Positions 1,272 to 60,561 of a stretch of DNA of 64,000 nucleotides are shown here, piece by piece; the stretch's first letter is position 1, and each line of letters opens with the position of its first letter. A program made the translations under genes and the position numbers. Below the pieces are notes generated by a model that saw only the letters and a program-made list of their open reading frames with translations, was not told the origin of the DNA and did no database searches. The stretch comes from Shigella phage SSG23: sequence record PQ351811; one strand, 5' to 3'.

Positions 1272-1292
1272 GATACTGATGGGATAGGGGTG

Positions 1293-1321
1293 TTGACAAA
1301 CTAGTTCGACTCCCCTATAAT
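1293..1321 (+). promoter_or_regulatory. sigma70-like early promoter TTGACA-17-TATAAT upstream of gene 43; spacer flanked by inverted repeat ATAGGGG/CCCCTAT
   Basis: TTGACA 1293-1298, TATAAT 1316-1321, 17-bp spacer; RBS AAGGAG then ATG 1354. Confidence 0.6.
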
Positions 1322-1353: not shown

Positions 1354-4032
1354 ATGTATTTTCTGTCATGTGAGCGAGTAGGTGATAAGATCTACGAGCG
1401 TTATATTGATGATGCTGGACAAGAACAAGAGCGTTACGTTGAATATACGCCAACATTATTTCATCATGCCGCGCCTGGTATGGTTACTAATTATAAAGAT
1501 ATCTATGGCAAGCCTTGCATTGCTAAAAAATTCCCATCTATGAACGAGGCCAACAAATGGCGTAAAAAGATGGGGGAAATGGGGCAAGAGGCACTAGGGA
1601 TGGATGATTTTATCATCTCCTATCTGTCTGATACATATAAAGGTGAGATTCGATATGACCGAAATAAAATCCGTGTAGCATGGGTTGATATTGAGGTCAC
1701 TGCACCGGAATTTCCTAAACCAGAAGAGGCGAAATATCCTATCGATGCAATTACGCATTATGACTCCGTACATGATCGTTTCTTTGTATTTGATTTGAAA
1801 GGAAAAAACGGTGAAATCTGGGAAGCAAGAAAGTCTATTCTTCGACCTGATATTGTAGAGCGCGTTGTTTATAACGTCTATGATACAGAAGATGAATTGC
1901 TATTAGAATACATCCGATTCTTTGAGGAAAATCGACCAGTTGGCTTCACTGGCTGGAACACAGAAACATTCGATATCCCGTATATCATTAAGCGTATCAG
2001 TAATAAGTTTGGAAGTCGAACGGCAAACCGTTTAAGCCCGTGCGGTAAGATTAAATCCCGAATCTCACAGGATGATTTTGGCAACGAGCGTGAAGCATTT
2101 ACGATCATGGGGATCGAAAGCCTTGATTACATTGACCTGTACAAGAAATTTAGCTTTACGACTCAACCAACATATGCATTAGATTATGTTGCTGAATATG
2201 AGACAGGAATCGGTAAGGTTGATTATGATGGTCCGTTAAAGAAATTGCGTGATGACAACCATCAACTTTACATCGATTATAACATCGGCGACGTTGACCG
2301 TGTGCTGGCGATTGATAAAAAACGTGGTTTTATTGATCTGGTGTATAGCCTATGTTTCTATGCAAAAATTAAATTTAACCATGTTTATAATCCGATGAAA
2401 GTATGGGATGCTATTATCTTCGGATCTCTGAAAGCAGAGGGTAAAGTAGTACCGGAAAATAAGATACAGCCTAAGCAGACTTATCCCGGCGCATTTGTAA
2501 AAGAACCTGTGCCGAATGCTTACCGTTGGATGATGAGCTTTGACTTAACAAGTCTTTATCCATCTATTATTCGACAGGTTAATATTTCGCCGGAAACTAT
2601 CGCTGGGTCTTTTGATGCTGCACCGATGCACGAGTATATCAATAAAACTGCCCCGCGTCCGAGTGATGAGTATTCTTGCTCGCCTAACGGATGGATGTAT
2701 CGAAAAGATATTCATGGTATCGTACCGATTGAGATTAAAAAGGTATTCGACCAGCGTAAGCAGTACAAAAACATGATGTTGGCATGTGATCGCAATGCTG
2801 AACTCTGTAAAGCGATTCTACACGATGAAAATCATGTTTATGGGGGAACCATTAGCTATAGCGTTGAAGTTCGTCATGACTTCGATGAAGCGTTTAAATC
2901 TATGCTTTCGGAATTGAGCAAAGATACCCTAGAAAAATTGCTGGAAGAATGTAAAGACGAGTCGATCTTGTGCAACACAAACCAGCTTTCTCGAAAAGTT
3001 TTGATCAACTCCCTTTATGGTGCGTTGGGGAATCCTAAATTCCGCTTTTATGATCTCCGTAACGCTAGTGCGATCACATTGTTTGGTCAGCTTGCAATTC
3101 AGTGGATTGAGCGTAAGATTAACGAATACTTAAACGAGCTTTGCGGAACAACTGATTTTGCATATGTTCGTTATTGTGATACTGACTCCGTTTATGTGCT
3201 GGTTAACAATGTTGTTGATAAGGTTGGCGGGGAAGACCGTTTCGACGATACCGAAAAACTTGTTGACTTCCTTGATAATTTCGGTAAGCATAGAATGGAA
3301 CCGATTATCGACAAGGGATATCGCGAGTTATGCGAGTACATGAACAACTATGAGCACTTGATGTTTATGGACCGTGAGGCAATTGCCGGACCGCCTTTGA
3401 AGTCTGCGGGTATCGGTGGATTCTGGACTGGTAAAAAGCGTTATGCTCTTAATGTTTGGGATATGGAAGGAACGCGCTTTGCTGAACCTAAGCTAAAAAT
3501 CATGGGCTTGGAAACACAACGTAGTTCTACTCCTAAAGCATGTCAGAAATCACTGAAAGAATGTATTCGTCGTATGTTGCAGGAAGGTGAAGAGTCATTG
3601 CAGGAATACTACGGTATTTTTGAGCAAGAATTTAGAAAACTTGACTATCTTGAGGTTGCTGCGGTATCATCTGCAAACAACCTACAGAAATACAGCGATT
3701 CAAACGGGTATCCGATTAAGGGTTGTCCGTATGCGGTTAAGAGTGTATTGTGTTATAATCGTAATGCTCGAAAATTCGGACTAGATCCGATTCGTGAGGG
3801 CGAGAAAGTTATGATCGTACCGCTCAAAGATCGAAATCCGTTTGGAGAAATCTGTTTTGGTTGGTTGTCTGGTACTCGTATTCCGCCAGAAATTGAATCA
3901 GAAGTGTTAAAGTGGTTAGACTGGCCTTTGTTGTTTAATAAGACTTTCGTCAAACCACTGGAGAACATTACCACGGCTGCAAAGCTGCAATATGAAAAAG
4001 TTGCTTCTCTGACTGACCTGTTTGACATTTAA
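1354..4032 (+). CDS. 43: DNA polymerase gp43 (family B)
   Basis: 892 aa from RBS-proximal ATG; long collinear similarity to T4 gp43 (YGKPCIAKKFPSMNEA, DIEV exo motif, SLYPSII, NSLYGALGN, YCDTDS pol motifs). Confidence 0.95.
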   Translation: MYFLSCERVGDKIYERYIDDAGQEQERYVEYTPTLFHHAAPGMVTNYKDIYGKPCIAKKFPSMNEANKWRKKMGEMGQEALGMDDFIISYLSDTYKGEIRYDRNKIRVAWVDIEVTAPEFPKPEEAKYPIDAITHYDSVHDRFFVFDLKGKNGEIWEARKSILRPDIVERVVYNVYDTEDELLLEYIRFFEENRPVGFTGWNTETFDIPYIIKRISNKFGSRTANRLSPCGKIKSRISQDDFGNEREAFTIMGIESLDYIDLYKKFSFTTQPTYALDYVAEYETGIGKVDYDGPLKKLRDDNHQLYIDYNIGDVDRVLAIDKKRGFIDLVYSLCFYAKIKFNHVYNPMKVWDAIIFGSLKAEGKVVPENKIQPKQTYPGAFVKEPVPNAYRWMMSFDLTSLYPSIIRQVNISPETIAGSFDAAPMHEYINKTAPRPSDEYSCSPNGWMYRKDIHGIVPIEIKKVFDQRKQYKNMMLACDRNAELCKAILHDENHVYGGTISYSVEVRHDFDEAFKSMLSELSKDTLEKLLEECKDESILCNTNQLSRKVLINSLYGALGNPKFRFYDLRNASAITLFGQLAIQWIERKINEYLNELCGTTDFAYVRYCDTDSVYVLVNNVVDKVGGEDRFDDTEKLVDFLDNFGKHRMEPIIDKGYRELCEYMNNYEHLMFMDREAIAGPPLKSAGIGGFWTGKKRYALNVWDMEGTRFAEPKLKIMGLETQRSSTPKACQKSLKECIRRMLQEGEESLQEYYGIFEQEFRKLDYLEVAAVSSANNLQKYSDSNGYPIKGCPYAVKSVLCYNRNARKFGLDPIREGEKVMIVPLKDRNPFGEICFGWLSGTRIPPEIESEVLKWLDWPLLFNKTFVKPLENITTAAKLQYEKVASLTDLFDI

Positions 4033-4093
4033 GATAAAGTGTGTATAATGGCGGGTGTTGGGTGACGATACCCGCCAATGTGAGAAATATACT

Positions 4094-4282
4094 ATGAGAG
4101 ACATTGAAAAGATTAAACGTGAACGAGAGGAAGGTATAGAGCATTTCAAGAAAGTTCACGGAAATCACAGCAACGAAGTATTTGTGACGATCGATGTTGA
4201 TGCGATGAAAAAGTTAATTCAAGAGCACTACAAAGATCGAATAACAATGAAGCAATTAAAGTATTACGGATTAACTGAATAG
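4094..4282 (+). CDS. hypothetical small protein
   Basis: 62-aa ORF in the 43-uvsX gap; no motif recognised. Confidence 0.3.
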   Translation: MRDIEKIKREREEGIEHFKKVHGNHSNEVFVTIDVDAMKKLIQEHYKDRITMKQLKYYGLTE

Positions 4283-4293
4283 AGGTATTAATA

Positions 4294-5364
4294 ATGTCTG
4301 TACTGGAAAAACTGAAAAAGAACTCTACCCTGAAAACTACTGCGGTACTGTCTAAATCCAGCTTCTTTAACGAAAAAACAAATACTCGCACTAAGATCCC
4401 GATGCTGAATATTGCGTTTTCTGGTGATCTTAAAAAAGGCTTTCAATCTGGTCTGATTTTCTTTGCTGGTCCGTCTAAGCACTTTAAATCAAACATGGGA
4501 TTAACTTGTGTTAGTGCATACATGAAACAGAATCCTGATGCGGCTTGCTTGTTCTTTGATTCTGAGTTTGGTATTACTTCCGCATATCTGGAATCTATGG
4601 GAGTAGATCCTGATCGCGTGGTGCATGTTCCAATCAAGAACATCGAAGAACTTAAATTTGAAATCATGAACCAGCTTGAGCAAATTACCCGCGAAGATAA
4701 AGTGATTATCTTTATTGACTCAATCGGTAACTTAGCAAGTAAAAAAGAAGTTGAAGACGCGATTAATGAGAAATCCGCGCAGGATATGACGCGAGCTAAA
4801 GCACTTAAAGGCTTGTTCCGTATGGTTACGCCATATCTGACTATGAATGATATCCCGTGCATCGCCATTAACCACACTTACGAAACGCAAGAAATGTTTA
4901 GTAAGACCGTTATGTCCGGCGGTACTGGCGCGATGTATTCAGCCAATGAAGTTTTCATTATCGGTCGTCGTCAGCAGAAAGAAGGAACCGAAATTACTGG
5001 TTATGATTTTATCCTGAATGCGGAAAAATCACGAACCGTTAAAGAAAAATCTAAGTTCCCGATTAGCGTAACCTTTAGCGGTGGTATCGATCCATATTCT
5101 GGCTTGCTGGAATTGGCTGTAGAGTTAGGTTGGGTAGTGAAACCGTCAAACGGCTGGTATTCTCGTTCCATCCTGAATACAGAGACCGGAGAGATGGAAA
5201 CCGAAGAACGCAAGTTCCGTGCTAAAGAAACCAATAGTATTGAGTTCTGGAAACCACTTCTGACAAACGATAAGTTTAACGAAGCAATCAACGATCATTA
5301 TAAGCTGGGACAAGTGATCAGCAATGAAGCAGTTGACAAAGAAATCGAAGATATGTTAGCATAA
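4294..5364 (+). CDS. uvsX: recombinase UvsX (RecA-like)
   Basis: 356 aa; FFNEKTNTRTKIPMLNIAFSG, Walker A FAGPSKHFKSN, DSIGNLASKKE and NHTYETQEMFSKTVMSGGTG match T4 UvsX. Confidence 0.95.
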   Translation: MSVLEKLKKNSTLKTTAVLSKSSFFNEKTNTRTKIPMLNIAFSGDLKKGFQSGLIFFAGPSKHFKSNMGLTCVSAYMKQNPDAACLFFDSEFGITSAYLESMGVDPDRVVHVPIKNIEELKFEIMNQLEQITREDKVIIFIDSIGNLASKKEVEDAINEKSAQDMTRAKALKGLFRMVTPYLTMNDIPCIAINHTYETQEMFSKTVMSGGTGAMYSANEVFIIGRRQQKEGTEITGYDFILNAEKSRTVKEKSKFPISVTFSGGIDPYSGLLELAVELGWVVKPSNGWYSRSILNTETGEMETEERKFRAKETNSIEFWKPLLTNDKFNEAINDHYKLGQVISNEAVDKEIEDMLA

Positions 5365-9813: not shown

Positions 9814-10332
9814 ATGTCAGAATTTAATTCTTGCGCTGGTCTGGTTAGCGACGAAACTATGTCTAAAGCTGGTATTGCGTATTCCGAGGCAATCACTAGC
9901 GGCAAAGATCCGCTGCAAGTAATGTTAGATATGCAAAAAGGCTTACAGGTCGCACTAGCTGATAAATTTGAGTGGGTGCCGCATCCTGATAAGCTGGAAA
10001 CTTGCGGGGAGATCCTTGATTGGATGAAGTTGTGGGATGACGCAATCGACGACGAGACACGAGAACTTTATGTTGCCCTGGGTGGCATGTCAAATGGCAA
10101 AGATGCAAGCGCAATTACTAAAGTGTGGAAGAAGAACCACGGCGAAGCACGAGCGCGTAAATTTGCTGATCTGTCAGATGACGATAAAATCGAAATTGCG
10201 ATGGAATTGATCGATATCTGGCATTTCGTGCTGATTAAAATGCTGGGCTTAGGTTTAACCGCTAAGGATATCTTCAAGCTGTACTACCTGAAAAATGCTG
10301 AAAATTTCGCCCGTCAAGAACGCGGCTACTAA
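9814..10332 (+). CDS. 56: dCTPase/dUTPase gp56 (MazG-like)
   Basis: DPLQVMLDMQ, HPDKLET, IFKLYYLKNAENFARQERGY match T4 gp56 almost residue-for-residue at the C-terminus. Confidence 0.85.
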   Translation: MSEFNSCAGLVSDETMSKAGIAYSEAITSGKDPLQVMLDMQKGLQVALADKFEWVPHPDKLETCGEILDWMKLWDDAIDDETRELYVALGGMSNGKDASAITKVWKKNHGEARARKFADLSDDDKIEIAMELIDIWHFVLIKMLGLGLTAKDIFKLYYLKNAENFARQERGY

Positions 10333-40780: not shown

Positions 40781-41377
40781 ATGAAAGAACTTGAATTAAA
40801 ATACTATGCTCATTCACAGGAAGGTGTAGAAACAATCTGTGATTTGTGGGTGGCAATGTATGACGGGTACAATCTCATAGACCGAGATAACATATTAAAA
40901 CACGAATTTTATTATGATACCGAAGATCATGCACTGCGTCGAAAAGGAATTTATGCTCGACTTGACGTTAACAGATCATTGATCATGGTCAAAATAGGTG
41001 ATAGTGAATCTGGACTATTCAACCGAGAAGAAATTACTTTTTCAACAATGGATGATTTCTATCACTATGTTGATAGTCTAGGCGTAAACTCCGACCTTAT
41101 CGTCCCTTTACTGCAAGTTATGACATATCGCAAGTCATTGACACTTGACCTTGAGGGTGCTATAGTGGAAATGTGCAAAGACACTTTCTATTATTGCAAA
41201 GTAGGCGAAGGAATGGGCGACGCTCACTATGAACTTGAGTTCGAGTTAAAATCAGGTGATGAAAAAGCACTTGACATTATCCGAGAAATGATGCTAGAAT
41301 ATGTCGGCGATGATTTAAGTCCTAGCGAAATCTCAAAAGCTGAACGTGGTTTTCAATTAATGATTAAAGAGGGTTAA
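40781..41377 (+). CDS. CYTH-domain (triphosphate tunnel metalloenzyme) protein
   Basis: 198 aa; N-terminal ExExK (ELELKY), YYDTEDHALRRKGIYARLD, NREEIT, YELEFELK fit CYTH (CyaB/ThTPase) signature as recalled. Confidence 0.55.
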   Translation: MKELELKYYAHSQEGVETICDLWVAMYDGYNLIDRDNILKHEFYYDTEDHALRRKGIYARLDVNRSLIMVKIGDSESGLFNREEITFSTMDDFYHYVDSLGVNSDLIVPLLQVMTYRKSLTLDLEGAIVEMCKDTFYYCKVGEGMGDAHYELEFELKSGDEKALDIIREMMLEYVGDDLSPSEISKAERGFQLMIKEG

Positions 41378-44444: not shown

Positions 44445-45014
44445 ATGATTCAATGTGTATTTGCGATTGGTGACACTAAAATGTCAGATGAAAATTGGGC
44501 GTTTGGTTTTAAAGGTGGCTTACCGTGGGGTCGTCCAATCAAAAAGGATATGGAAAACTTCCAAATGCGCACTATGACGCGGTTTAGCGATGCTGCGGTA
44601 GTAATGGGGCGTAATACCTTTGAAAGTCTTCCTAAAGCTCTTGCAGGACGTCTTAATGTGGTTATTAGCACCGATGCCAGTAAGCCGACACCAAAAGCTA
44701 AAAACGGCGACCAGCCAGATGTGTATACTGGAATTGAATTAAAGGATCTGTTAAAAGCCCTTGAGAAAACGCAAGGTTTGGTAAGCGTTATCGGTGGACC
44801 TTCCCTGATTGAAAAAGCAGTTGAGTTTGCGGACCGTATTGTGTTAACGTATGTTCAACGTTCAGGAATCAACGATCCGTTTGAATATGATGTTGGTATC
44901 TCTAAGGAAATGATTCAGGAATTGTATTTTGACTTTGCAACAAAAGAAGAACATAATTACTTCCTTGATGATTACCTGATCAGTGAGCAAATTTTAGAAC
45001 GTAAGAAGGCGTAA
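44445..45014 (+). CDS. frd: dihydrofolate reductase
   Basis: AFGFKGGLPWG, MGRNTFESLP, VSVIGGPSL DHFR motifs; adjacent to td as in T4. Confidence 0.85.
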   Translation: MIQCVFAIGDTKMSDENWAFGFKGGLPWGRPIKKDMENFQMRTMTRFSDAAVVMGRNTFESLPKALAGRLNVVISTDASKPTPKAKNGDQPDVYTGIELKDLLKALEKTQGLVSVIGGPSLIEKAVEFADRIVLTYVQRSGINDPFEYDVGISKEMIQELYFDFATKEEHNYFLDDYLISEQILERKKA

Positions 45015-45108: not shown

Positions 45109-45377
45109 TGAAAATAACCATTATTCAATTATGGTCGGCTACCAGTGAAAACTACGCAGTAGCCGTAGATTATTACGGTTTACAATATCTCTATGATGAA
45201 GCGAGCGCATCATGGCTTCCGGTGCAAGAAAATAGCGATATCTCAAGACCTGCTACTGTATTCGATCCGGGCGTTGTCTTTATCAATATTGACGAGACAG
45301 TAGCAAAACTGCGTAAGAAAGCAATCAATAAGAAAAAGGTGATGTGGGATGAAAGAATATTTGAAACTATTGCGTGA
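45108..45377 (+). CDS. hypothetical protein
   Basis: 89-aa ORF; 3' end overlaps td start. Confidence 0.35.
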   Translation: MKITIIQLWSATSENYAVAVDYYGLQYLYDEASASWLPVQENSDISRPATVFDPGVVFINIDETVAKLRKKAINKKKVMWDERIFETIA

Positions 45378-46581
45378 TGTTCTTGATAATGGCTGGCCTC
45401 GTGAAGACCGAACGGGGGTAGGTACGCTCTCTAAATTCGGCGCAGAGATGCGAATTGACTTAAGCAAGGGTTTCCCCTTACTGACAACTAAAAAGATGGC
45501 TACAGCCTCTGTAATTGGCGAGTTGCTATGGTTTATGGAAGGGTCGCTGGACCGCCGTCGCTTACAGGAAATTACACGCGGTAAATTCGATGACGAAGCC
45601 TTTGATATTTGGCGCGGTAACTGTCTTGATATGAAAGAAAAGAATCCTTTGCGATTCAACGGCTATAATGTTGGCAATATGTATGGTATGGCGTGGCGAC
45701 GCAAGCCGATTCATCCACACGGTGAAATCAAAATTAAGCGCGTTAAGAGCAAATATACACATACATTTAAGCACCCGTGGGTAGAAGACTTTACGCCAAC
45801 CAACGACACAGAAGACCGTTTATGTGCTATCTGGCGTGGTATGCGTTATGAAGAGTTTGATTCTGAATATAATCAATTCTTAGTAGCAGACCACTGGAAG
45901 ACTCAATCCAATTTTGTTAATGATGCATACTGCTTGTGGGGATTCCAGGAATGGGTAGATGATGGTTATTTCGGTTATCTGCTTGATAGTGATTATCTGG
46001 GTGGGGATATGTTCGCACCGGATACCACAATCTTTGTTAATATGGACGTAGACACATCAAGCCCTAAAGACGATGAAGAATATATCTATCGCCCGAAGAT
46101 TTGGGAAGACCAGTTACAAAACGTGATTGAACAAATTAAAAATAATCCAACGGATCGCCGGATCATTATTGACTCATGGAACGTACAAGGAACACATAAT
46201 GCTGTATTAGGTGTATGTCATCCTTTCGTGCAATTCTACGTCAATGAAGGTAAACTGTCCTGTATGTGGTTTCAGCGAAGCGTAGACAGCTTTTTGGGCT
46301 TGCCCTTTAACGTCGCCAGCTATGCGCTGTTAACTCACATCATAGCGAAAATGTGCGACCTTGAGGTTGGCGAACTGATTTTCTCCGGCGGAGATACTCA
46401 CATTTACAAAAACCACTTTGACCAAGTTATGGAGCAATTAAACCGTGTTCCGTTTGATAAACCAACAATTGAGTTGCCGGAATTTAAATCTTTAGATGAG
46501 GTATTGACAAAAACTCCGAAAGACTTTAAAATTCACAACTATCAAAGCCACCCGGCAATCACCGCTCAAATGGCAGTATAA
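45349..46581 (+). CDS. td: thymidylate synthase (ThyA family) with large internal insertion
   Basis: 410 aa; both ends collinear with E. coli ThyA/T4 Td (DRTGVGTLS, FPLLTTKK, catalytic VCHPFVQFY, LGLPFNVASYALL, GGDTHIY); about 125 aa inserted after YGMAWRR. Confidence 0.85.
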   Translation: MKEYLKLLRDVLDNGWPREDRTGVGTLSKFGAEMRIDLSKGFPLLTTKKMATASVIGELLWFMEGSLDRRRLQEITRGKFDDEAFDIWRGNCLDMKEKNPLRFNGYNVGNMYGMAWRRKPIHPHGEIKIKRVKSKYTHTFKHPWVEDFTPTNDTEDRLCAIWRGMRYEEFDSEYNQFLVADHWKTQSNFVNDAYCLWGFQEWVDDGYFGYLLDSDYLGGDMFAPDTTIFVNMDVDTSSPKDDEEYIYRPKIWEDQLQNVIEQIKNNPTDRRIIIDSWNVQGTHNAVLGVCHPFVQFYVNEGKLSCMWFQRSVDSFLGLPFNVASYALLTHIIAKMCDLEVGELIFSGGDTHIYKNHFDQVMEQLNRVPFDKPTIELPEFKSLDEVLTKTPKDFKIHNYQSHPAITAQMAV

Positions 46582-49751: not shown

Positions 49752-49820
49752 TAGTGAGGTGAATTAATCCTTCTTCTGGATACCTGATAAATAATGGTAT
49801 ACAGAAAAGAGGATTTATTC

Positions 49821-50468
49821 ATGAACTTACAAAAACTACACGACGCAATCATAGAAAAAGCGAAGATAAGAGGAACCGTTGAAGGATATAAGGAAACACA
49901 TCATATTTTACCGCGATCTATGGGTGGCGGTGATGAAGTCGATAACCTGATTGATTTGACAGCCAAAGAACATTTTGTGATTCATCACCTGCTAGCAAAA
50001 ATTCATGGTGGACCTATGGCGCAAGCATTTGGTATGATGTGTTTGGCAAAAAATGCTAAGACCAATAAAAGAGATTATGTTGTTTCGTCTAGGGTATATG
50101 AACAAGCTAGGGTACTGATATCTGAACAAAGAAAGGGTAAGCCTATGAAAGAAGAAACGCGAAGAAAGATTAGCGAATCTTCGAAAGGTGTATTGAAATC
50201 AGAAGAGACAAAAGCTAAAATGCGTAAACCAAAAACAAAGGAGCACGCGTTAAACATTTCAAAAGCTAGAATGGGAAGTAAAAATCCTATGTTTGGGAAA
50301 CCATCGCCAACTAAAGGAATACCACATAGCGAGGAAATGAGAAAGCTGATTGCACAAAGGACAAAGGAAGCAACAATGGCAGATCCTTGTCCGCATTGCG
50401 GTAAAATTACCAATAAAGGCAATGCTCTACGATGGCACTTTGATAACTGCAAAATGAGGAATATGTGA
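49821..50468 (+). CDS. HNH homing endonuclease (MobE-like; HNH + NUMOD3 repeats + C-terminal zinc finger)
   Basis: ETHHILPRSMGGGDEVDNLIDLTAKEHFVIH; repeated basic K-rich motifs; CPHCGK; inserted between nrdA and nrdB like T4 mobE. Confidence 0.75.
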   Translation: MNLQKLHDAIIEKAKIRGTVEGYKETHHILPRSMGGGDEVDNLIDLTAKEHFVIHHLLAKIHGGPMAQAFGMMCLAKNAKTNKRDYVVSSRVYEQARVLISEQRKGKPMKEETRRKISESSKGVLKSEETKAKMRKPKTKEHALNISKARMGSKNPMFGKPSPTKGIPHSEEMRKLIAQRTKEATMADPCPHCGKITNKGNALRWHFDNCKMRNM

Positions 50469-53230: not shown

Positions 53231-53692
53231 ATGATTAATGAGCTAATAGAAAACTATGGATTCGTTAAATATTCATGTTTAGAGTGTAAAGATGGTGATG
53301 TGATTCTACCGCCTCAGAAGAACCGTTTAAATGTTCTTTACGCTATTGTGGTTGATGATGAACTGGTATATATTGGTCAGACTGTTAATCTAAGAAAGCG
53401 GATCAATTATTACCGGACTAGCATTAACAGACAGACACCAACGGCGGATACTCGCAAGAGTAAGAATATTCATAAGGCGCTAGAGGAAGGGAAGACAGTA
53501 ACATTCTATTACCGCCAGTGCTTTGAGTTGTACATCGAGAATCCAACGGGTAAGGATATTATAAGCACTGCCGATATCGAAGAACCTGTTTTGATCACCA
53601 AATTTAAACCAGAATGGAACACAAATTATGTCAACAAAAGAAAACAACAAAAAAGTTTTAGCATTGTTCAAAAATCTGATGACACTATGTGA
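53231..53692 (+). CDS. denA: endonuclease II (DenA; GIY-YIG family)
   Basis: YGFVKY..., NVLYAIVVDDELVYIGQTVNLRKRINYYRTSINR, ARQCF match T4 DenA; about 17 aa longer at C-terminus. Confidence 0.85.
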   Translation: MINELIENYGFVKYSCLECKDGDVILPPQKNRLNVLYAIVVDDELVYIGQTVNLRKRINYYRTSINRQTPTADTRKSKNIHKALEEGKTVTFYYRQCFELYIENPTGKDIISTADIEEPVLITKFKPEWNTNYVNKRKQQKSFSIVQKSDDTM

Positions 53693-56714: not shown

Positions 56715-57221
56715 ATGTTATCACAAACTTACATGCAGATCGCCTATCTGATCGCAAAGAACTCTAAATGTGTTTCGTGGAAGGTAGGCGCACTAATTGA
56801 AAAAGACGGTCGAATCATTTCTACTGGATTTAATGGCACTCCGGCAGGGCAAGTAAATTGTAGCTGTCATGCACATAAAAGCGGTTGGCTGGATGATGAA
56901 GGTAAAATGATCCCTGAAAAGCGACCGGAACATAGCGCATGGTCACAGAAAAACGAGATCCACGCTGAATTAAATGCTATTTTGTTTGCTGCCCGTAATG
57001 GTGTATCGATTGAAGGGGCTAGTATGTGGTGCACTGCTTCACCGTGTCCAGATTGCGCTAAAGCAATTGCAAACAGTGGCATTAAACATCTATACTATTG
57101 CGATACATACGACCGAAATGGTGGGCGTGATTGGGCTGATATTTTGGATAAAGCCGACATTACGGTTACGCGTATTCCAAAAGCATTATTGACTGATTTG
57201 AAGGGTATTGATAATGACTGA
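56715..57221 (+). CDS. cd: dCMP deaminase
   Basis: QIAYLIAKNSKCVSWKVGALIEKDGRIISTGFNGTPAG, HAELNAILFAARNG, SPCPDCAKAIANSGIK match T4 Cd. Confidence 0.85.
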   Translation: MLSQTYMQIAYLIAKNSKCVSWKVGALIEKDGRIISTGFNGTPAGQVNCSCHAHKSGWLDDEGKMIPEKRPEHSAWSQKNEIHAELNAILFAARNGVSIEGASMWCTASPCPDCAKAIANSGIKHLYYCDTYDRNGGRDWADILDKADITVTRIPKALLTDLKGIDND

Positions 57222-58609: not shown

Positions 58610-60092
58610 TATCATTAATCAGCTTGCAGCGACCGACAAAACATCGCTGAAAGAAAAGATCCTGAAAGAATCTGCAAGCAATGAAACGCTGAAAGAATGC
58701 TTTTATCTGGCATATTGCAAACAGGTTACGTTTGGCGTAAAGAAATACGATAAACCGTCGCGTTATTCATCTGTGTTGTCTTTATCCGGTGCATTACAGG
58801 TCTTTAAAAATAAACTTGCCACGCGTCAAGTAACTGGTAATGCCGCATTACAGCTAGTTACCGATACTCTGACTTGCTTGTCAGAAGATGATGCTAAAGT
58901 TGCAATGATGGTCCTGAATCGTGATCTGGAATGCGGTTGTTCCGCTACCACAGCAAACAAGGTATGGAAGAAGCTGATTCCTCAGCAGCCGTGCCATCTT
59001 GCATCGTCATGTTCTGATAAGACTATTGCCAATATCAAATATCCGGCGTATGCACAACTTAAAAGCGATGGCGCTCGTGGTATGGCTGATATTGACGGGG
59101 AAACATTAGCAATCTATACCCGTTCAGGTAATACCTATCAGGGGCTGGATGATTTGTTTGCTGTTTTAGAGCGTCTACGAGGCCGTGGAGTTGTTTTAGA
59201 TGGTGAGTTGGTATATATGCCTACCCTTTCGCAAACACCAGCGCAGAACTTCGTTGATAGCGTTTATGATGGTACTCTGTCATGGATATTTGAAGAAGAG
59301 GAAATGCCATTAACGCCAGTAGCGGAAGCAGTGAAAGAATCAGTTGTTGCAGATCGTCAGACCGGAAATGGTATCCTTAACAAATCACTGAAAGGAACTA
59401 TTCCGAAAGAAGAAGCCCAATGTATTGTATACACCGTCTGGGATGTTATCGACCGTGATGTGTATTACGGAAACGAGAAAGCAACGAAGCAGTATAAAGA
59501 TCGATTTGAGGAACTAAAACAGATTGTTGAAGAACTTAACGATCCTCGTGTTCAGATAATCGAAAATACTGTAGTTAACAATATCGATGAGGCTCGCGAA
59601 GTATATCATCGCTATGTAAACATGGGATTAGAAGGTATTATCCTTAAAAATTTACATGGTGTATTTGAAGATCGTCGCAGTAAAGATCAGGTTAAATTTA
59701 AAGAAGTGATTGACTTCGACGCGGAAATTGTTGATGTATATCCGCATAGTAAAGATCCTAACAAGGTAGGCGGTTTTACTGTCCGTAGTGCGTGCGGACG
59801 AATGACGACTAACACCGGATCGGGATTGACCGACACCACAACCGAAAAAGATGATGATGGTATTGAACGTGTAATTCCGTTCGATCGTCGAAATGAACTC
59901 GACCGAGAAATGTTATGGGCTGACCGTCATAACCTGATTGGAAAAGTCATTGAGATGACATGCAACGGGTATATCCGCAGCAAATCACGTAAAGAAGATG
60001 AACCGGAGTTCTCTTTATTTCTCCCGATCATCAAACGTATTCGCTACGACAAGACCACTGCAAATACAGTAAAAGAGGTATTCGATGTGTGA
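58596..60092 (+). CDS. 30: ATP-dependent DNA ligase gp30
   Basis: NRDLECG, ANKVW, YPAYAQLKSDGARG (ligase KxDG), VLDGELVY, GIANKSLKGTI, EGIILKN, KFKEV match T4 gp30. Confidence 0.9.
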   Translation: MSILNIINQLAATDKTSLKEKILKESASNETLKECFYLAYCKQVTFGVKKYDKPSRYSSVLSLSGALQVFKNKLATRQVTGNAALQLVTDTLTCLSEDDAKVAMMVLNRDLECGCSATTANKVWKKLIPQQPCHLASSCSDKTIANIKYPAYAQLKSDGARGMADIDGETLAIYTRSGNTYQGLDDLFAVLERLRGRGVVLDGELVYMPTLSQTPAQNFVDSVYDGTLSWIFEEEEMPLTPVAEAVKESVVADRQTGNGILNKSLKGTIPKEEAQCIVYTVWDVIDRDVYYGNEKATKQYKDRFEELKQIVEELNDPRVQIIENTVVNNIDEAREVYHRYVNMGLEGIILKNLHGVFEDRRSKDQVKFKEVIDFDAEIVDVYPHSKDPNKVGGFTVRSACGRMTTNTGSGLTDTTTEKDDDGIERVIPFDRRNELDREMLWADRHNLIGKVIEMTCNGYIRSKSRKEDEPEFSLFLPIIKRIRYDKTTANTVKEVFDV

Positions 60093-60561
60093 TAATGAAG
60101 GGGCGAAAGCCCCTAAACCTAAAAAATTGTCAAAGAAAGAGCAACGCCAGATCCTGAAAATGAAATACGGTGGACGTTGTGCCTATTGTGGCGAGGAACT
60201 AGGGGATCGCTGGCACGCAGACCACATCAAACCAGTATTGCGACGCTCAAAAGTAGTCTATGATGAAAGTGGACGAATTGCCCGTAATGATGATGGATCG
60301 TGGAAGTATAAGGTTGTAGGAATGCATAAACCGGAGCACGATATACTTGATAACATGAATCCGGCTTGTGTGCAATGCAATCTTTACAAAAGCTGTATGG
60401 GCTTAGAATACTGGCGTAAGTGTATACGCGAGAACTTCCAGAAGTACATTCAACGTAACATGGGATTACGTGCGGCTAAACGCTTTGGCTTACTTTCAAT
60501 CCACGATCAGCCAGTAGAATTTTATTTCGAAAAGTACGAGCGCGAGCATCAAGAAAAATAA
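60085..60561 (+). CDS. HNH endonuclease (free-standing)
   Basis: 158 aa; CAYCGEEL...HADHIKPV...NMNPACVQCNLYK classical HNH motif. Confidence 0.7.
   Translation: MCDNEGAKAPKPKKLSKKEQRQILKMKYGGRCAYCGEELGDRWHADHIKPVLRRSKVVYDESGRIARNDDGSWKYKVVGMHKPEHDILDNMNPACVQCNLYKSCMGLEYWRKCIRENFQKYIQRNMGLRAAKRFGLLSIHDQPVEFYFEKYEREHQEK

Follow-up and report, generated by a model that had tools for sequence, protein, structure and literature searches.

Between gene 43 (DNA polymerase) and uvsX (RecA-like recombinase), the 64-kb stretch of phage DNA analysed here (hereafter the window) holds only 261 bp, counted from the gene 43 stop at 4032 to the uvsX start at 4294. This gap contains a promoter and stem-loop cassette, followed by one plausible plus-strand open reading frame of 62 aa (ORF62; Table 1). 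Three minus-strand reading frames at the locus (3916-4149, 3968-4168 and 4146-4391) run opposite to gene 43, ORF62 or uvsX and have no annotation in either Shigella phage SFHK24 or RB49. The flanking replication genes keep the order of T4 (45, 44, 62, regA, 43 ... uvsX, 40, 41, 61, 56), in which the corresponding interval spans about 3.6 kb and carries imm.1, imm, 42, beta-gt and segA. A preliminary description of this DNA had reported a slot without imm, 42 and beta-gt and with only a 62-aa reading frame, which agrees both with the stop and start positions and with the SFHK24 annotation; its account of the T4 interval was right for imm, 42 and beta-gt and left out imm.1 and segA. Its notion of a canonical slot after gene 43 is also a real one for phages that bear gene 42, such as T4 and Aeromonas phage 31. 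The empty gap is a structural fact of gene order that carries no statistical signal, and a chance test is inapplicable to it. Comparison of the gap and the window with Rfam matched no family, and on that ground we rejected the idea that the gap hides an RNA element.

Table 1. Features of the gap, its flanks and the nucleotide-metabolism genes (positions in the window)
Feature	Position	Strand	Details
PeSL upstream of gene 43	1285..1321	+	TTGACA 1293-1298, 17 nt, TATAAT 1316-1321
Gene 43, DNA polymerase	1354..4032	+	Start as in the SFHK24 annotation; frame open from GTG 1324
Sigma-70 early-type promoter in the gap	4022..4049	+	TTGACA 4022-4027, 16 nt, TATAAT 4044-4049
Stem-loop	4049..4077	+	12-bp stem TGGCGGGTGTTG / CGATACCCGCCA, 5-nt loop; GGCGGG...CCCGCC, G-run/C-run pairing
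ORF62 (= RB49ORF025c, phrog_12120)	4094..4282	+	ATG 4094, 62 aa; 75 aa from GTG 4055
uvsX, RecA-like recombinase	4294..5364	+	97.2% nt identical to RB49 uvsX
Gene 56 homologue, all-alpha NTP pyrophosphohydrolase	9814..10332	+	51-52% to T4 gp56, full length
frd, dihydrofolate reductase	44445..45014	+	Pfam DHFR_1 E = 2e-20; 34% to T4 Frd
td, thymidylate synthase	45349..46581	+	Pfam Thymidylat_synt E = 2e-84; 47% to T4 Td
denA, endonuclease II homologue (GIY-YIG)	53231..53692	+	49-51% to T4 DenA
cd, dCMP deaminase	56715..57221	+	56% to T4 Cd; Pfam dCMP_cyt_deam_1 E = 1.5e-23

The window corresponds to nt 76162-140161 of SFHK24 (record PQ351812.1) with 0 mismatches. SFHK24 was isolated on Shigella flexneri and is classified in the Straboviridae, genus Krischvirus (RB49-like or 'pseudo-T-even' phages), and on nucleotide identity we assign the window to an RB49-like phage of this genus. 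All whole-genome checks were run on the complete SFHK24 sequence of 168,820 bp; a literature search on SFHK24 itself found nothing. When a 3-kb query around the gap was compared with sequence records, it matched SFHK24 at 100% and 57 other RB49-like phages at 90-99%, giving 58 Krischvirus records that match at least 80% of the query (identity 90-100%). Gene by gene, RB49 and SFHK24 are 92.5-98.3% identical with the exception of gene 56, and gene 43 shares 96.5% of its nucleotides with its RB49 counterpart at a dN/dS of 0.008.

The promoter in the gap agrees with the sigma-70 consensus at 12/12 positions, its -35 box falls within the final codons of gene 43, and the RB49 record AY343333 (2003) annotates identical -35 and -10 boxes as a 'hypothetical early promoter', together with ORF025c. 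The 76-nt segment that holds the stem-loop (4025-4100) folds at -27 kcal/mol (z = -5.6), and 0/200 shuffled sequences were as stable. A terminator scan found no T-run or T-tail downstream of the stem-loop and, because this tail is missing, the structure as read from its letters is not a canonical intrinsic terminator. Transcripts of the adjacent promoter, which should start around 4056, would contain little of the stem's 5' arm. The promoter upstream of gene 43 is likewise a perfect sigma-70 consensus, and its -35 and -10 boxes are bracketed by a TAGGGG/CCCCTA stem. Arrangements of this kind were named 'promoter-early stem-loop' (PeSL) by Arbiol, Comeau and Krisch in 2010, who proposed them as mediators of excision and insertion, and in RB49 and phi1 they border gene 43 on both sides (PMC2839356). 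The gap shows each of the features by which a PeSL is recognized, namely a strong sigma-70-like promoter, an adjacent stable stem-loop and a small ORFan directly downstream. As one half of a PeSL, the stem-loop at 4049-4077 probably attenuates read-through from gene 43, judging from the same study (PMC2839356). The promoter half would drive the 62-aa ORFan and probably add early transcription into uvsX, 40 and 41.

ORF62 begins 17 nt past the stem and is at least 96.8% identical across all of the Krischvirus records (58/58). Its product, annotated as 'hypothetical protein' in SFHK24, is highly charged, has no hydrophobic segment and carries the conserved motif IEHFKxxHGNHSxEV. Comparison with Pfam, NCBIfam and PADLOC gave no match, the family phrog_12120 carries no function, and a word-indexed homologue search returned near-identical proteins only. 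An exhaustive HMMER search among 1.84 billion proteins yielded 8 cluster representatives of 56-77 aa. With tblastn we found distant homologues (45-50% identity) that share the motif in Salmonella phage Akira, where the protein is free-standing and 60 aa long, and in Klebsiella phage BUCT791, where it forms the N-terminus of a 430-aa DUF2800/PD-(D/E)XK nuclease. A single-sequence AlphaFold model of ORF62 was poor (pLDDT 66) and consisted of three helices. Two candidate roles were rejected. The protein is highly charged and has no hydrophobic stretch, which speaks against an Imm analogue, and its small size and lack of a catalytic domain rule it out as a replacement for gp42 or beta-gt. Two hints, namely that a homologue is fused to a RecB/Cas4-type nuclease and that ORF62 lies between polymerase and recombinase, suggest that this small protein has an accessory or adaptor role in DNA replication or recombination, which we offer as a best guess and a tentative one.

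The preliminary description had left two alternatives for the DNA of this phage: unmodified cytosine, as suggested for RB49-like phages, or modification genes that lie elsewhere in the genome. The latter would be the ordinary T-even case, with hmC made by gene 42 and glucosyltransferases encoded outside the window; it could draw on the presence of gp56 and DenA, which are partners of gp42 in T4, and on the fact that no more than 64 kb of the 168.8-kb genome fall within the window. A tblastn search of the whole SFHK24 genome with T4 gp42, a-gt, b-gt, imm, imm.1, alc, denB, arn and ndd gave a best E value of 0.013, and this match is of T4 gp42 on its paralogue td, at 23% identity. For T4 a-gt and b-gt there was nothing below E = 0.6, and no pseudogene remnants of 42 or beta-gt were seen in SFHK24 by tblastn. 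The genes alc, denB and arn, invariable companions of gene 42 (PMC2993671 Table 4), are missing from the genome as well; tblastn gave no matches for them (best E = 0.27 to 1.5). At the T4 position of alpha-gt, the 55-47 interval, SFHK24 has two small ORFs only. A Pfam/PHROGs scan covered every unannotated ORF of 250 aa or more (seven) and 14 others, some annotated and some not. It found no glycosyltransferase, TET or thymidylate-synthase-like domain, although a highly divergent glycosyltransferase might escape such a scan; the domains that it did find were Ig, DEAD helicase, CYTH, RlaP, SLT and DUF262. On these homology searches, the presence of known T-even modification genes elsewhere in the genome is refuted, and we consider the ordinary T-even case exceedingly improbable.

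The same complement of genes has been reported for relatives of this phage. In the RB49 type, gene 42, alc and denB are absent while 56 and denA are present, as tabulated by Petrov et al. in 2010 (PMC2993671 Table 4), and a 2025 survey lists Krischvirus as positive for dCTPase and denA and negative for hmC, denB, ndd and alc (PMC12115623 Table 4). A 2021 paper found DenA and dCTPase-dUTPase homologues in the RB43 and RB49 types and no genes for synthesis of a non-canonical base (PMC8056088).

The chemistry of virion DNA from related phages also argues against hmC. Yaung et al. in 2014 found that HpaII and NheI cut RB49 DNA and do not cut T4 DNA (PMC4041780 Fig. S1); because these enzymes cut it, RB49 DNA is without hmC or ghmC. 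A 2026 study by HPLC-MS detected canonical nucleosides only in Krischvirus TB34 (PMC13390438). Both results count against the ordinary T-even case. For another Krischvirus, SAP, which is 99.96% identical to TB34, the same study reported 5-hmdC (about one third) and alpha-gentiobiosyl-hmdC (about two thirds), together with cleavage by BrxU, and its authors found no responsible genes (PMC13390438). This result would speak for a further reading, in which cytosine or another base is hypermodified by an unrecognisable pathway encoded among roughly 170 ORFans: SAP, like TB34, shares with the window ORF62, the insertion in Td and the class of gene 56 allele, and more than half of the ORFs of SFHK24 are without an assigned function. 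Against this, the near-identical TB34 has canonical cytosine (PMC13390438), RB49 DNA is open to HpaII and NheI (PMC4041780), and the modification profile of SAP equals that of seven Tequatrovirus phages in the same study (PMC13390438 section 7). The most economical reading of the SAP result, which is ours and not a claim of its authors, is a mixed or swapped preparation. We regard hypermodification by an unrecognisable pathway as very unlikely, and it is highly improbable that certain members of Krischvirus, perhaps this phage among them, replace cytosine with hmC or gentiobiosyl-hmC by means of enzymes unlike gp42 and the known DNA glycosyltransferases. If the SAP result is real, gene content alone fails to predict the modification state in Krischvirus, and if such cryptic modification did exist, gp56, DenA and some of the ORFans would be part of its pathway, which might be switchable.

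Further evidence for cytosine DNA comes from the avoidance of restriction sites. We compared hexamer counts in the SFHK24 genome with maximal-order Markov expectations, and counts of restriction sites with third-order Markov simulations. Of the 64 six-base palindromes, 22 are absent from SFHK24, and for 18 of these the expected count is 5 or higher; the absences include TCCGGA (0 observed, 71 expected), GAATTC (0/48), AAGCTT (0/39), GGATCC (0/34), AGCGCT (0/29) and CCGCGG (0/28). Only 10 of the 3966 non-palindromic hexamers are absent. In T4, 99 kb of which were examined, every palindrome whose expected count reaches 5 does occur. Recognition sites of restriction systems in SFHK24 are depleted as well, with 0 EcoKI sites (16.7 ± 3.4 expected), 1 EcoAI site (10.4 expected), 0 Eco57I sites (CTGAAG; 88 ± 11 expected), 1 RCCGGY (115 expected), 0 CCWWGG (65 expected) and 76 CCWGG (198 expected), and the same sites show no depletion in T4. 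These figures reproduce a published contrast, in which 55.8% of E. coli restriction-modification sites are avoided by T4-like coliphages without hydroxymethylase and 2.4% by those with it (PMC6286503). Such a purge argues that the DNA of this lineage is readable by restriction enzymes and has long been exposed to them. Avoidance on this scale would be pointless for hmC DNA, which again tells against the ordinary T-even case, and its occurrence throughout the genus is difficult to reconcile with hypermodification by an unrecognisable pathway. GATC is not depleted in SFHK24, which fits the presence of a Dam homologue. This homologue (46% to T4 Dam) is one of three predicted DNA methyltransferases; of the two others, CDS0250 matched nothing in PDB or Pfam and has a motif-level resemblance only to C5-methyltransferases. 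Site-specific methylation, possibly of some cytosines, may thus occur in this phage.

Taken together, the missing modification genes, the chemistry of RB49 and TB34 and the site avoidance support the first alternative of the preliminary description, that of unmodified cytosine as in RB49-like phages, and the whole-genome search for gene 42 and glucosyltransferase homologues was negative for the second. The DNA of RB49-like (Krischvirus) phages almost certainly contains ordinary cytosine and escapes restriction because the cutting sites have been purged from the genome. To call the identity of the modification open, as that description did, was an overstatement, given that the state of the RB49 group has been textbook knowledge since 2002-2010.

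What the retained nucleotide-metabolism genes do in a phage with cytosine DNA is a separate matter. All of those previously listed for the window (gp56, DenA, Cd, Td and Frd) were found, by identity to T4 proteins and by Pfam. Cd, Td and Frd belong to the ordinary enzymes of dTMP synthesis, and in T4, together with gp56, they route dC and dU nucleotides to dTMP, a pathway that also sanitises dUTP. Gene 56 is syntenic with its T4 counterpart, adjoining gene 61, and T4 gp56 itself is a dCTPase-dUTPase; a PDB sequence search with the gp56 of this phage found no relative. In Td the dUMP-specificity position is occupied by Asn (LPFNVASYA) and the C-terminus is complete, whereas T4 gp42 lacks this Asn and shows Asp in the corresponding stretch (FGFRND). 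We therefore read the td product as a genuine thymidylate synthase, and the idea that it might be a hidden dCMP hydroxymethylase was rejected in view of the specificity Asn, the 47% identity to T4 Td and the full C-terminus. Td also carries an insertion of 135 aa (nt 45700-46104) that is found throughout the genus and in unrelated phage thyA genes. DenA keeps the catalytic-type residues that align with R57, E118 and N130 of T4 EndoII.

These genes could be the scar of a lost module: an ancestor with hmC would have lost imm-42-beta-gt, for instance through PeSL-mediated excision, leaving gp56 and DenA behind without a function of their own. The proposal gains from the location of gene 42, which directly follows 43 in T4 and, at a large evolutionary distance, in Aeromonas phage 31, a position that must be old because these two share it, and from the PeSLs that flank gene 43 and have been proposed to act in excision and insertion (PMC2839356). 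It fares less well with the genes themselves. Relative to RB49, dN/dS is 0.035 for denA, 0.018 for cd and 0.048 for td (0.02-0.05 for these three) and 0.127 for frd, and because of these low values and the conserved catalytic-type residues of DenA the retained genes are not decaying relics; purifying selection on denA, cd and td is strong. Gene 56 is intact in two deeply diverged alleles. Homologues of gp56 and denA are far more widely distributed than gene 42, including in other lineages without it (PMC2993671 Table 4; PMC12115623 Tables 3 and 4), with genome counts of 412 against 353 (PMC12115623 Table 3), and in another lineage without gene 42, gene 43 abuts uvsX. The site purge, moreover, implies long residence as cytosine DNA. 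On balance a scar with functionless leftovers is unlikely. These data fit both a loss of the module in Krischvirus and a gain in the T-evens. The wider occurrence of gp56 and denA also bears on the label 'cytosine-exclusion-associated' that had been given to these genes: the genes are indeed present, but the label is T4-centric, because gp56 and denA are far commoner than gene 42.

Gene 56 stands out in comparisons within the genus. The ORF (window 9822-10321) is 63-75% identical to that of RB49, with at least 93% identity on both flanks. Two alleles are found, an SFHK24-type in 15 records and an RB49-type in about 40, with a nucleotide identity between them of 72.6-74%; SFHK24 and RB49 themselves share about 72% of nucleotides in this gene and 69% of amino acids in its product. 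The residues common to the gp56 of T4 and of Aeromonas phage 31 are conserved in both alleles. Gene 56 is thus the site of a gene-precise mosaic in a genus that is otherwise roughly 97% identical.

We consider it highly likely that, as a whole, the Krischvirus gap is a PeSL with its ORFan in a phage that has cytosine DNA, a purge of restriction sites and a retained route to dTMP. In the mechanism that we propose, the junction after gene 43 in Krischvirus never holds the T-even hmC module and would instead be occupied by one small mobile regulatory cassette. The phage DNA would be made with ordinary cytosine, and the T4-style discriminators of cytosine DNA (alc, denB, arn and ndd) are missing. 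Defence against restriction would lie in the near-total purge of enterobacterial sites, to which site-specific methyltransferases may add. The enzymes gp56, Cd, Td and Frd would be kept as the phage's own dTMP route, in which dCTP, dCDP, dUTP and dUDP flow to dCMP or dUMP and on to dTMP while uracil is kept out of DNA; such a flux may be useful for building a genome of 40% G+C from a host pool of 51% G+C. In T4, gp56 acts as a cytosine excluder as well, though only in combination with gp42, and we infer that its dCTPase activity here is lower or better balanced than in T4. DenA may be kept as an enzyme that nicks host DNA, with the phage genome presumably protected from it.

The absence of the hmC module, plain cytosine and the PeSLs around gene 43 in RB49 types are already published or annotated in GenBank. 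The present analysis makes two questions concrete, namely what role gp56 and an intact EndoII have in a phage with cytosine DNA, and why two alleles of gene 56 persist. The cytosine DNA itself has some practical relevance, in that Krischvirus phages go into phage-therapy cocktails; having unmodified DNA, they are open to attack by CRISPR and restriction systems, escape type IV systems and are capable of generalized transduction (PMC12115623).

Compared with the T4 hmC system, this phage has homologues of gp56, DenA, Cd, Td, Frd and Dam (34-56% identity) but lacks gp42, both glucosyltransferases, Alc, DenB, Arn, Imm and Ndd genome-wide. Klebsiella phages RCIP0009 and phiKp_8 and Escherichia phage phT4A likewise have gp56 homologues and no modification module after gene 43. 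In these phages, which are about 69% identical to the window in nucleotides, gene 43 leads directly to uvsX across a 74-bp spacer with no ORFan, so that an empty junction is common. With the PeSL and ORFan cassettes described previously (PMC2839356), the gap shares a consensus promoter that adjoins a stem-loop of G-run/C-run pairing and a placement from the stop codon of one gene to the start of a small ORFan. It differs from them in two respects: it lies inside the conserved replication module and not in a hyperplastic region, and its ORFan is fixed in 58/58 genomes whereas those of the published cassettes are variably present. The window is about 97% identical in nucleotides to RB49, phi1, JSE and TB34 over the 43-uvsX region and shares with Krischvirus phages the presence of 56 and denA and the absence of 42, gt, alc, denB and ndd (PMC12115623 Table 4). 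SFHK24 differs from RB49 in its gene 56 allele, which it has in common with 14 other Krischvirus records, and in a slightly larger genome, and the order of gene 43, early promoter, 62-aa ORF (RB49ORF025c) and uvsX is identical in the two.

Throughout the window and the whole genome of Shigella phage SFHK24, the RB49-like Krischvirus that contains the window at 100% identity, we observed an extreme purge of enterobacterial restriction sites, and the overall pattern of avoidance has already been published (PMC6286503). The SFHK24 genome lacks 22 of the 64 hexamer palindromes, and has no EcoKI sites (17 expected), no Eco57I sites (88 expected), no CCWWGG (65 expected) and a single RCCGGY (115 expected). 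Counts of GATC, NheI, XbaI and EcoRV sites in the same genome gave no depletion, and comparable site depletion was not seen in T4. As to the DNA itself, T6-type hmC and gentiobiosyl-hmC have been reported for Krischvirus SAP (OZ034687.1), a modification profile equal to that of seven Tequatrovirus phages in the same study, and plain cytosine for TB34 (OX001802.1), which is 99.96% identical to SAP; the authors left the SAP result without explanation (PMC13390438).

Beyond the window, SFHK24 encodes three predicted DNA methyltransferases. The first is a Dam homologue with 46% identity to that of T4 and a DPPY motif. Another, inserted amid the baseplate genes, carries an NPPF motif and matches Eco57I methylase in Pfam, even though the genome has no sites for Eco57I. 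The third, of 238 aa, has C5-methyltransferase-like motifs (FDGSG, FPPC and ENP) and no match in Pfam or PDB. Two genes 3' of this C5-like gene lies an ORF whose domain matches GmrSD_N/DUF262 in Pfam (E = 8.6e-20) and NsnA in PADLOC (2e-20); the ORF is without the C-terminal nuclease half present in GmrSD. It is pure speculation that its product might target the modified DNA of rival phages.

Coordinates of features in the window, in pieces of the SFHK24 genome (L001, L002, L004) and in two other phages (L007, L008)
Feature	Location	Strand	Remarks
Second perfect consensus promoter	window 1285-1321		TTGACA-17 nt-TATAAT; directly 5' of gene 43
Gene 56	window 9814-10332
198-aa ORF	window 40781-41377		annotated hypothetical; between RNase H-like exonuclease gene and dsbA
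td	window 45349-46581
td insertion	window 45700-46104		135 aa, in-frame; starts after YGMAWR
Homing endonuclease gene (so annotated)	window 49794-50468		free-standing; between nrdA and nrdB
HNH endonuclease gene (so annotated)	window 60085-60561		free-standing homing type; immediately after DNA ligase
Predicted methyltransferase	L001:19645-20484	-
Predicted methyltransferase	L002:10768-11580	+
Predicted methyltransferase	L004:6951-7667	+
GmrSD_N/DUF262 ORF	L004:7998-8516	+	172 aa
ORF62 domain, free-standing	L007:2447-2629		60-aa protein; Salmonella phage Akira (Akiravirus)
ORF62 domain, N-terminal	L008:2468-3760		430-aa DUF2800/PD-(D/E)XK nuclease; Klebsiella phage BUCT791

The -35 and -10 boxes of the promoter upstream of gene 43 are enclosed by a stem, in agreement with the published account of PeSLs (promoter-early stem-loop cassettes) on both sides of that gene. 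The domain of ORF62, the 62-aa ORFan between gene 43 and uvsX, is marked by the motif IEHFKxxHGNHSxEV and occurs fused N-terminally to a DUF2800/PD-(D/E)XK nuclease in Klebsiella siphophages.

Gene 56 is a mosaic with gene-precise borders within Krischvirus: the ORF has 63-75% nucleotide and 69% amino acid identity to RB49, and the flanks on both sides have at least 93% nucleotide identity. TB34 and SAP are among the 15 records with the SFHK24-type allele, as is 'Krischvirus RB49' in a resequenced version (OZ035808), and about 40 Krischvirus records have the RB49-type allele; the phage collection contains no nearer donor.

Among the other genes of the window, the 198-aa ORF matches the CYTH (triphosphate tunnel) domain of Pfam at E = 1.5e-6. 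The insertion in td is present in all Krischvirus with 88-100% identity, the remainder of the gene being less variable, and its distant relatives (31-32%) are found in thyA of Klebsiella jumbo phage KP13-7 and Vibrio phages D181 and D69. With this insertion, thymidylate synthase, the td product, is 410 aa long in SFHK24 compared with 286 in T4, and the nrdA-nrdB interval, which holds only three small ORFs in RB49, includes a homing endonuclease gene in SFHK24.
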